This document shows, in pieces, positions 40,337 through 40,853 of a stretch of DNA of 64,000 nucleotides. The DNA is from Escherichia coli (GTDB lineage Bacteria; Pseudomonadota; Gammaproteobacteria; Enterobacterales; Enterobacteriaceae): assembly GCF_003334405.1 (NCBI RefSeq), contig NZ_QOWM01000001.1, one strand, 5' to 3'. The notes below the pieces were generated by a model, which saw only the letters and a program-made list of their open reading frames with translations, had not been told where the DNA came from and searched no databases. A program made the translations under genes and the position numbers. How positions within the stretch are numbered: position 1 is the stretch's first letter; every line of letters begins with the position of its first letter.

Positions 40337-40534
40337 ACGGCGGAAAGGGCCGCAGTGGATAATACACTAACAGAACAATAATAACTCTCTTTTGCTTGAC
40401 AAAAAGAGAGTTACTGGCGAGTATTGTCTCCGCTGAGACGCGCTTGCATTACTACGGTAATACAACCTGCTGGAAAGGCCGCGAACCGGACCAGCAACAA
40501 AAAACCGCCTGATTTTGGCGGTTTTTTGTTTTTT
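40337..40534. repeat. Paralogous module A of the sseB-sseA spacer
   Basis: Shares with module B a conserved 5' block (82/91 nt identical) containing a perfect inverted repeat, then a ~40-nt divergent core and a ~55-nt conserved 3' block ending in a terminator. Confidence 0.8.
40499..40534. terminator. Bidirectional intrinsic terminator inside module A
   Basis: AAAAAACCGCC-tgatttt-GGCGGTTTTTTGTTTTTT. The A-run upstream and T-run downstream make it terminator-like on both strands. Confidence 0.65.
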
Positions 40535-40658
40535 AAAGGAAAGTGAATTTACATGTTTAAGTAATATCTTTTACCGGTTAGAATTTTTAATTTTGAGCAG
40601 GATTTGTTTATATTTGTCTGAATTCGGACTAATAAGCCAGGTTATTTTATTACCGAAC

Positions 40659-40853
40659 ACGGCGGAAAGGGCCGGTGTCGATAATACGCTAAATAAACAA
40701 TAATTACTCTCTTTTGCTTGACAAAAAGAGAGTTACTGGTGAGTATTGTTTTGCTGTGAAGCACCTGCGTTGCTCATGTAACACAAGTCAACCTGCTGGA
40801 AAGGCCGCGAACCAGACTAGCAATAAAAAACCGCCAAATTCGGCGGTTTTTTA
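40659..40853. repeat. Paralogous module B of the sseB-sseA spacer
   Basis: Same architecture as module A. Its terminator doubles as the sseA terminator. Confidence 0.8.
40825..40853. terminator. Bidirectional intrinsic terminator of module B / sseA
   Basis: AAAAAACCGCC-aaattc-GGCGGTTTTTT, 16 nt beyond the sseA stop codon (minus strand). Confidence 0.7.

Follow-up and report, generated by a model that had tools for sequence, protein, structure and literature searches.

Two repeated modules in the 64-kb stretch of Escherichia coli DNA analyzed here (herein the window) are very probably two genes for TimR, the antitoxin small RNA (sRNA) of the type I toxin-antitoxin system timPR; the pair appears to be the remnant of a tandem duplication, and the copy distal to timP would be the main repressor of the toxin. 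The case rests on family membership, the repeat itself, a seed-target matrix, and the distribution of alleles. The family, also called RyfB, is already known, and the finding is a rediscovery from sequence alone. The features of the locus are collected in Table 1, where TimR-1 and TimR-2 denote the genes of module 1 and module 2.

Table 1. Features of the timPR locus, in window coordinates
Feature	Position	Strand	Basis or remark
timP mRNA (formerly sRNA RyfA)	40050..40353	-	Rfam RF00126 (ryfA), 314.9 bits, full length
timP CDS, 41 aa, small toxic inner-membrane protein	40082..40207	-	RefSeq (L001, 1543-1668)
Predicted TimR binding site, type B, in stem-loop 2 of the timP 5′UTR	40270..40298	-	mRNA nt 54-82
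19-nt family, member in timP leader	40272-40290		GCTGTGAAACACCTGCATT
Putative timP -10, TATTAT	40359..40364	-	Read from sequence; 7 nt upstream of +1
12-bp perfect palindrome (I8) across back-to-back -35 regions	40382-40413		Repeated in module 2 at 40704-40735
TimR-1 putative promoter	40396..40424	+	TTGACA 40396-40401, N17, GAGTAT 40419-40424
TimR-1 (module 1)	40430..40530	+	~101 nt; covariance model and fold
TimR-1 type-A seed	40430-40450	+	
19-nt family, module 1 member	40432-40450		74%
TimR-1 SL1	40444-40465	+	
TimR-1 conserved 3′ stem-loop	40468-40496	+	
TimR-1 terminator	40497-40529	+	
Hairpin I6 (module 1 terminator)	40496-40530		14 bp, perfect
IS128 region, inter-unit spacer	40485..40693	-	Rfam RF00125, 209-nt family, 262.1 bits
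Relic of duplicated sseB 3′ end, TTTATTACCGAACA	40646..40659	+	Exact copy of 39968-39981 (D4)
Stub of deleted second timP, first 14 nt of mRNA	40660..40673	-	Alignment with module 1 and the B allele of L007/L128
TimR-2 putative promoter	40718..40746	+	TTGACA 40718-40723, N17, GAGTAT 40741-40746
TimR-2 (module 2)	40752..40853	+	Covariance model and fold
TimR-2 type-B seed	40752-40771	+	
19-nt family, module 2 member	40753-40771		89%
TimR-2 SL1	40766-40785	+	
TimR-2 conserved 3′ stem-loop	40794-40822	+	
TimR-2 terminator, common to sseA arriving from the other side	40824-40853	+	
Hairpin I5 (module 2 terminator)	40820-40857		19-nt arms, 95%

Both Modules Match TimR End to End

Around 40 kb of the window the gene order is that of E. 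coli, pepB-sseB-[timP]-sseA-yfhM. An identical 841-bp stretch is seen in many E. coli genomes, and the locus is matched at ≥99% identity in 1516 of 5426 complete ones. In identical loci, RefSeq places a timP gene between sseB and sseA, and homologs of the product carry the name TimP; a search of proteins with TimP as query found only entries from Escherichia and Shigella and partial ones from Klebsiella. At one identical locus (L001) the timP CDS is the sole annotation, without either TimR gene. Rfam release 15 gives no plus-strand family match at gathering score on either module; the best subthreshold scores are those of the rimP leader (35.4, threshold 47), AgrB (29.6, threshold 40), and ohsC (28.8, threshold 50), and no plus-strand match that could represent TimR appears at E values up to 1. 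TimR thus does not seem to be represented in Rfam 15, and with RefSeq holding the timP CDS only, both TimR genes are invisible in standard annotation.

In Salmonella, ryfA encodes the toxin TimP, and a divergent sRNA, TimR, blocks its translation by pairing through its 5′ end with the timP 5′UTR; complementary, terminator-bearing sequences lie upstream of timP in all enterobacteria examined (PMC7667032). The E. coli TimR sequence used by those authors was not found in the supplements of PMC7667032 and PMC11228461, in which the figures are images. The full Salmonella TimR was rebuilt from the T7-template oligonucleotides EHO-1419/1420, and the deletion primer EHO-1349 supplied its promoter (PMC7667032, primer table). 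A pattern scan of genome contigs with GCGGTCNNNGCANNGACCGCAC returned mostly high-GC chance matches and at least 15 usable Enterobacterales loci, with no Salmonella among the matches listed. Salmonella TimR aligns end to end with both modules, as do sequences beside ryfA-like genes in Citrobacter, Superficieibacter, Yersinia, Rahnella, and Erwinia.

A covariance model (R1) was built from eight non-Escherichia sequences only, Salmonella TimR and seven homologs. It matches both modules on the plus strand over all 101 model positions: module 1 at 40430-40531 (102.8 bits, E = 6e-21) and module 2 at 40751-40856 (83.3 bits, E = 1e-16). The next plus-strand match in the window scores below 13 bits, and the only other match with E < 0.01 is the palindromic terminator read backwards. 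As full-length matches to an Escherichia-free TimR model, both modules are assigned to TimR. Of the original prediction of two plus-strand sRNAs of about 100 to 165 nt, the strand and the lower length therefore stand and 165 nt is too long; its suggestion of an antitoxin sRNA family is borne out by the same matches. Expression is documented for homologs outside the window strain, by Northern blot in Salmonella, uropathogenic E. coli CFT073, and avian pathogenic E. coli (APEC) CH138, and by RNA-seq for RyfB1 and RyfB2 of S. dysenteriae; the searchable literature yielded no expression data for either TimR gene in the window strain or K-12.

The Conserved 5′ Block Is Promoter DNA

The modules were first described as having near-identical 5′ and 3′ blocks, each with its own terminator, and this holds: repeat D1 (40337-40427 and 40659-40749) is 91 nt long and 90% identical, repeat D2 (40463-40526 and 40789-40852) is 64 nt long and 84% identical, and each module closes with a strong hairpin followed by a T run. 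The strings quoted in that description all lie where it placed them. Copies are spaced 322 to 326 bp apart, and the box CTGCTGGAAAGGCCGCGAACC has exactly two occurrences in the 64 kb, where shuffled sequences predict 0.00. A consensus terminator scan called neither hairpin, apparently because A/T stem extensions use up the T tail.

The cores are a different matter. Described as unrelated over some 40 nt, they align with one 5-nt indel and are homologous. They form part of a three-copy, 19-nt family (D3) whose third copy lies inside the timP leader; the module 2 seed differs from that copy at two positions, and 0.02 such matches are expected by chance. As the leader copy is on the same DNA strand as the cores, the two are complementary at the RNA level.

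The conserved 5′ block consists of the first 14 to 15 nt of the minus-strand timP mRNA and two divergent promoters, so that each module holds a back-to-back pair, with timP read leftward and an RNA of about 100 nt read rightward. The Salmonella timP transcript start GGCCCTTTCCGCCGTC (oligonucleotides EHO-1224/1421) corresponds to window position 40351, which by analogy with Salmonella would be the timP +1; the Salmonella promoter (EHO-1348) has the same TATTAT-N7-G layout as that of the window timP. TimR starts at ~40430 and ~40752 are inferred from Salmonella cloning and deletion primers. The arrangement TTGACA-N17-GAGTAT-N5-+1 is found upstream of Salmonella TimR (EHO-1349, EHO-1357) and of E. 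coli TimR of seed types A through D, with spacers that differ. GAGTAT agrees with the -10 consensus at three of six positions, and a consensus promoter scan called neither TimR promoter, which we put down to its rules; promoters and terminators alike are assigned on other evidence. The distance from the timP +1 to the module 1 RNA start (40430) is 79 bp; module 2 keeps this spacing, counted from the 14-nt stub of a timP that strain GF131 has in full. Since the plus-strand RNA begins only at ~40430 or ~40752, its 5′ end is variable and its 3′ two-thirds are conserved. The reading "conserved ends, divergent core" accordingly fails for the RNA: the 5′ block belongs to the promoter DNA, and what varies is the 5′ seed.

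The predicted folds of both RNAs, which include the terminator hairpins, lie far below those of shuffled controls, TimR-1 at -37.8 kcal/mol (z = -4.5 against shuffles) and TimR-2 at -33.5 kcal/mol (z = -3.1). The consensus structure has a single-stranded seed of about 18 nt, a 5-bp SL1, an invariant second stem-loop, and a covarying terminator. Compensatory changes occur in SL1 at pairs 19:32 and 22:29, and double changes at six pairs of the structure. The invariant stem-loop reads CUGCUGG-AAAGGCCGCGAACC-...CCAGCA, its stem GCUGG...CCAGC enclosing AAAGGCCGC.

The same DNA could be read as mainly minus-strand promoter and leader units, for timP and IS128, with the plus-strand hairpins serving simply as the neighbors' bidirectional terminators. 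This alternative, raised in the original prediction, has a sound part: module 1 does contain the timP promoter and 5′ end, module 2 an orphaned timP promoter and its stub, and each 5′ block carries a timP-type -10 and transcript start. The Rfam ryfA and IS128 models also lie on the minus strand, the module 2 terminator serves sseA as well, and the module 1 terminator also ends IS128. As the whole account, however, it is very improbable. It leaves unexplained the conserved plus-strand promoter, a stem-loop that is invariant from Escherichia as far as Yersinia, Rahnella, and Erwinia, the covariation of seed and target (below), and the full-length plus-strand matches to the TimR model.

Plus-strand ORFs over the modules have TTG starts only (38, 40, and 49 aa), in line with the earlier view that no ORF with a plausible start exists there. 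That these ORFs, which do overlap the modules, encode small proteins is barely credible, and we rejected this reading: they lack ATG and Shine-Dalgarno sequences, indels of 5 and 1 nt, seen between the copies and among species, disrupt any reading frame, and conservation tracks RNA helices, in which changes are compensatory.

The two TimR genes also bear out a reported resemblance between the 5′ box and the 3′ box of each module, which at the RNA level amounts to a predicted -22 kcal/mol duplex with the timP 5′ end. The TimR 3′ box (GGAAAGGCCGC) complements the initial 12 nt of timP mRNA, and 1% of shuffles reach this energy. Complementarity is present and weaker in other genera (shuffle fractions of 0.01 to 0.16 across genera); as both partners are conserved, covariation cannot decide its role. 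It could be a second contact, or it could be left over from an origin of TimR as a duplicate of timP-leader antisense sequence. Structure probing reports no change at the timP 5′ end (PMC11228461).

The Variable Seed Tracks the Adjacent timP Leader

In a 10 × 10 matrix of timP leaders against TimR seeds, each leader's own seed is the best in every row. Cognate duplexes range from -34 to -43 kcal/mol and noncognate ones from about -10 to -37 kcal/mol. The best noncognate value is -32.6 kcal/mol or weaker in nine of the ten rows; the exception, with the narrowest margin, is the Superficieibacter leader (-41.6 kcal/mol for the cognate seed vs. -36.8 for that of Citrobacter). In all cases inspected, the predicted pairing site falls within SL2 of the leader or beside it, and the seed covaries with the adjacent timP leader across nine loci. 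No other evidence obtained here speaks as strongly as this matrix for the variable "core" being a functional seed.

For the window timP, whose predicted SL2 hairpin spans mRNA nt 56-95, duplex prediction docks both seeds at nt 54-82 of the leader, with unequal energies. The TimR-2 seed gives -36.0 kcal/mol with 19 of 19 positions paired, including two G-U (nt 54-81), within the cognate range. The TimR-1 seed gives -26.0 kcal/mol with two mismatches and three G-U pairs, within the noncognate range and 10 kcal/mol short of TimR-2; on the A-type timP of strain LP50-1 it reaches -37.3 kcal/mol. Full-length cofolding with the window timP gains -22.9 kcal/mol for TimR-2 and -14.2 for TimR-1. Within three mismatches, nothing else in the 64-kb window matches the TimR-1 seed. 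These predictions point to TimR-2 as the cognate, main repressor of the window timP and, since TimR-1 pairs only imperfectly with the B target, to TimR-1 as a class-A orphan or, at most, an auxiliary antitoxin. Of its five differences from that target, however, three become G-U, and with G-U allowed it still forms 17 of 19 pairs, so TimR-1 may also repress timP; that the distal copy is "the" antitoxin is thus something we infer.

The covariation bears on a further possibility, that the two RNAs are siblings in the manner of OmrA/OmrB, acting in trans on unlinked mRNAs with timP as one target or a minor one. Losing ryfA does harm to APEC only if timR is there, an effect that the authors ascribe to TimR acting elsewhere once it has no partner (PMC13188913), and an orphan TimR-1 with an intact promoter invites the idea of other targets. 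Seeds that covary with the adjacent leader in nine of nine loci instead suggest a single dedicated target; in contrast to OmrA/OmrB, it is the seed that varies, with the remainder conserved, and plasmid overexpression of timR in APEC gave no phenotype (PMC13188913). We regard the trans-regulator reading as unlikely.

For a timP-dedicated antitoxin the mechanism of repression comes from the literature. Translation of timP is repressed by pairing of the TimR 5′ end in SL2 (PMC7667032, PMC11228461, PMC13000454). TimR binds the loop and the 5′ side of SL2 in the active timP mRNA conformer, and this binding destabilizes a pseudoknot required for 30S loading and favors a fold that hides the Shine-Dalgarno sequence (PMC11228461, PMC13000454); in probing, Salmonella TimR protects the SL2 loop at G76 (PMC11228461). 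By analogy, each window gene would be transcribed from its TTGACA-N17-GAGTAT promoter into a ~101-nt RNA made up of seed, small hairpin, invariant stem-loop, and intrinsic terminator. The seed would pair with SL2 of the timP 5′UTR about 60 nt upstream of the ribosome-binding site, the pseudoknot needed for translation would be destabilized, the Shine-Dalgarno sequence would stay sequestered, and TimP would not be made.

Seed Classes and the Origin of the Second Gene

E. coli has at least four seed classes: A (GCTGAGACGCGCTTGC, e.g., LP50-1), B (GCTGTGAAGCACCTGCG, e.g., the Nissle-derived SYNB1934, locus L128), C (CACTGTGGGGTGCCTG, in O157:H7), and D, an orphan class in L004 and L006. Toxin and antitoxin match in each of the single-unit loci of types A (L002), B (L128), and C (L003). 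In strain GF131 (L007) there are two complete units, first B and then C, with a spacer and a duplicated sseB 3′ fragment between them. The window runs from a timP with a B target through an A-type promoter region and the A-seed TimR-1 to the spacer, after which come a relic of sseB fused to the timP stub, a B-type promoter region, and the B-seed TimR-2. At the position of the relic, the sseB 3′ fragment of GF131 continues and is followed by a second complete timP. Both novel junctions of the window lie within the conserved 5′ box.

We propose that the module pair would be what is left of a tandem duplication of a [sseB 3′ end-timP-timR] unit, in which the second timP may have been deleted down to its 14-nt stub, leaving a promoter, the IS128 spacer, and its TimR. 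The promoter and seed of TimR-1 (40357-40486) are base-for-base identical to those of the A-type gene of LP50-1, which stands beside its cognate timP; the terminators differ. Two routes fit the window architecture alike: gene conversion with a later deletion, or an A cassette inserted into a B allele.

IS128 finds its place in the same scheme. Its spacer is also present between the two full units of GF131, and in the window transcription of the RNA would probably begin at the orphaned timP promoter and stop at the bidirectional TimR-1 terminator. Rfam IS128 is not the sRNA: it is on the strand opposite to TimR and comprises the spacer, with the deleted-timP stub and promoter at its head. The TimR target is absent from it. 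Overexpression of IS128 caused no change beyond a 1.5-fold cut-off in one screen, in which biofilm was 83 ± 12% of the control.

Across the 5426 complete E. coli genomes, seed B and target B are found in nearly equal numbers (2020 vs. 1971). Seed A is found in 4546 and target A in 2900, an excess of ~1650 that fits the 1516 genomes with the window architecture. D-type copies with no matching timP seen occur in 395 genomes.

These numbers can be turned against TimR-1. Only one TimR copy may be functional, TimR-1 being an inert leftover, neither required nor under selection, of the tandem duplication noted by Rudd as the PAIR3 repeat; PAIR3 is an old alias of RyfA, to which the repeat pair corresponds. 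The energy of its seed on the window timP, the lack of any other near-match in the window, and the commonness of orphans (seed A without target A, D without a seen timP) would all suit a leftover. Against this, the promoter and seed are intact and identical to those of a paired A-type gene, the G-U pairs still allow most of the B target to be bound, and the architecture is kept at ≥99% identity in the genomes counted above; none of these points proves selection. On balance we find an inert TimR-1 rather doubtful, though a real possibility.

A bolder proposal, which we offer tentatively and rate as somewhat short of even, is that in ~30% of E. coli genomes, those with the K-12-like architecture of the window, the antitoxin beside timP belongs to the wrong class and the true partner of timP lies one unit away behind a deleted toxin, and that the alleles are exchangeable and the orphans kept for a reason. 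If so, timPR would be a set of exchangeable specificity alleles, A, B, C, and D, that recombine as cassettes, and an orphan TimR might be kept as a back-up repressor through G-U pairing, as a shield against an incoming timP of another class, or as a regulator of other targets.

Two timR genes with different seeds in a K-12-type strain would have a practical consequence. A knockout of the timR adjacent to timP would eliminate the copy that matches less well, with the cognate still in place, which could explain weak or absent phenotypes. The A, B, C, and D seeds with their matching targets also form a natural test set for type I antitoxin specificity. The two-TimR arrangement was not found described in the searchable literature; the order of a noncognate proximal and a cognate distal copy is a modest detail, likewise without description there.

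Comparison with Known Systems

The closest relative is TimR (STnc2070) of Salmonella enterica (Andresen et al. 2020; Eleftheraki and Holmqvist 2024; NAR 2026 gkag240), whose gene has the same upstream, divergent position. Salmonella and window TimR share a length of ~100 nt, a variable 5′ seed for SL2, the CUGCUGGAAAGGCCGCGAA...CCAGCA stem-loop, and a terminator; the seed sequences of the window differ from that of Salmonella. Against one timP and one TimR in Salmonella, the window has a single timP with two TimR genes whose seeds differ, and the gene next to timP matches it less well. In APEC, deletion of timR has little phenotype, and it has been doubted that TimP is made in E. coli (PMC13188913).

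S. dysenteriae expresses ~100-nt RyfB1 and RyfB2 divergently from tandem ryfA1 and ryfA2, and overproduction of RyfB1 lowers RyfA1 and not RyfA2 (Fris et al. 2017, PMC5333039). RyfB1 and RyfB2 are ~60% identical, with specificity set by a short variable region, and their two-unit form is that of E. coli GF131. Both ryfA copies are complete in S. dysenteriae; in the window, by contrast, the second is a 14-nt stub and the first unit combines a B-type timP with an A-type sRNA.

Among other type I pairs, IstR-1/tisB, OhsC/shoB, OrzO/zorO, and AgrB/dinQ resemble timPR in having adjacent, nonoverlapping, divergent genes and a short, trans-like pairing (~18 to 20 nt) in the leader, far from the start codon; zor-orz is also a tandem pair with copy-specific antitoxins. 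Subthreshold Rfam matches to AgrB, ohsC, and OrzO-P on the modules fall largely on the terminators, and these divergent antitoxins show no homology to TimR above Rfam thresholds. Unlike in the toxins compared, timP mRNA is activated by a structural switch and not by processing.

OmrA and OmrB, to which the modules were originally likened, are also adjacent paralogous sRNA genes with their own terminators. Their conserved 5′ end pairs with common targets, and their central part differs. The analogy breaks down because in TimR the variable 5′ end is the targeting seed: the divergent part covaries with one linked target, each seed tracking its own, and the remainder of the RNA is conserved.

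Gene Fusions at the Seed/Target Repeat

At four loci the body of the toxin gene timP is joined straight onto the 3' two-thirds of its antitoxin sRNA gene, TimR, and the junction is the direct repeat formed by the TimR seed (the variable 5' end of the sRNA) and its target (the matching site in the timP leader). These loci have lost the timP leader and both promoters. Because the fusion is found in four separate lineages, the seed/target repeat appears to act as a built-in deletion site, through which toxin and antitoxin are disabled together. Consistent with deletion at this repeat, seed C is found in more of the 5426 complete Escherichia coli genomes than target C (580 versus 383).

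TimR Variants and Seed Classes

A fourth TimR variant, D, adjoins sseA and is present in 395 of the 5426 genomes; it has the seed AGACGAGATACACTTGCAGT and a promoter spacer of its own, and lacks the first hairpin. No timP matching the D seed was seen at the E. coli O158:H23 and PKF11 loci. Beyond E. coli, an A-type seed occurs in Escherichia whittamii (locus L052) and a C-type seed in Escherichia sp. E1V33 (locus L104); the specificity classes therefore cross species boundaries, and either predate E. coli or have been exchanged between species.

Separately, the IS3-family element ISEcB1 lies inside the loop of the TimR terminator hairpin in two strains, in two different TimR copies. The remaining above-threshold Rfam matches in the window, GlmY, naRNA4, the iscRS element and SroE, are all as expected for this chromosomal region.

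Positions of the features in the window and in the compared timPR loci
Feature	Locus or sequence	Position
timP-TimR fusion	L005, E. coli 06-00048	intergenic 201-300
timP-TimR fusion	L109, C. amalonaticus	
timP-TimR fusion	L077, Y. similis	
timP-TimR fusion	L107, Y. aleksiciae	
D-type TimR	L004, E. coli O158:H23	969-1083 of locus
D-type TimR	L006, E. coli PKF11	3169-3271 of locus
ISEcB1 in TimR terminator loop	L005 (E. coli 06-00048), L129 (E. coli 510016)	window equivalents ~40510-40516 and ~40838
TimR 3' box	window	40467-40487
timP 5' end, complementary to 3' box	window	40340-40353
12-bp palindrome	TAACTCTCTTTT	window 40382-40413
12-bp palindrome	AAAAGAGAGTTA	window 40704-40735
GlmY	window	2959-3106
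naRNA4	window	31778-31849
iscRS element	window	32566-32675
SroE	window	53522-53613

Complementarity and Symmetry at the timP/TimR Ends

The 5' end of the timP mRNA is complementary to the TimR 3' box, one of the two imperfect direct repeats within each TimR module, with an energy of -22 kcal/mol that 1% of shuffles reach; the complementarity is present, in weaker form, in other genera. It could provide a second contact between the two RNAs or be a relic of the origin of the sRNA. timP and timR have their -35 regions back to back, and in both the A and the B alleles a perfect 12-bp palindrome extends across the two; it may be the site of a shared regulator. In Salmonella the same promoter spacer carries a different inverted repeat, of 7 bp.
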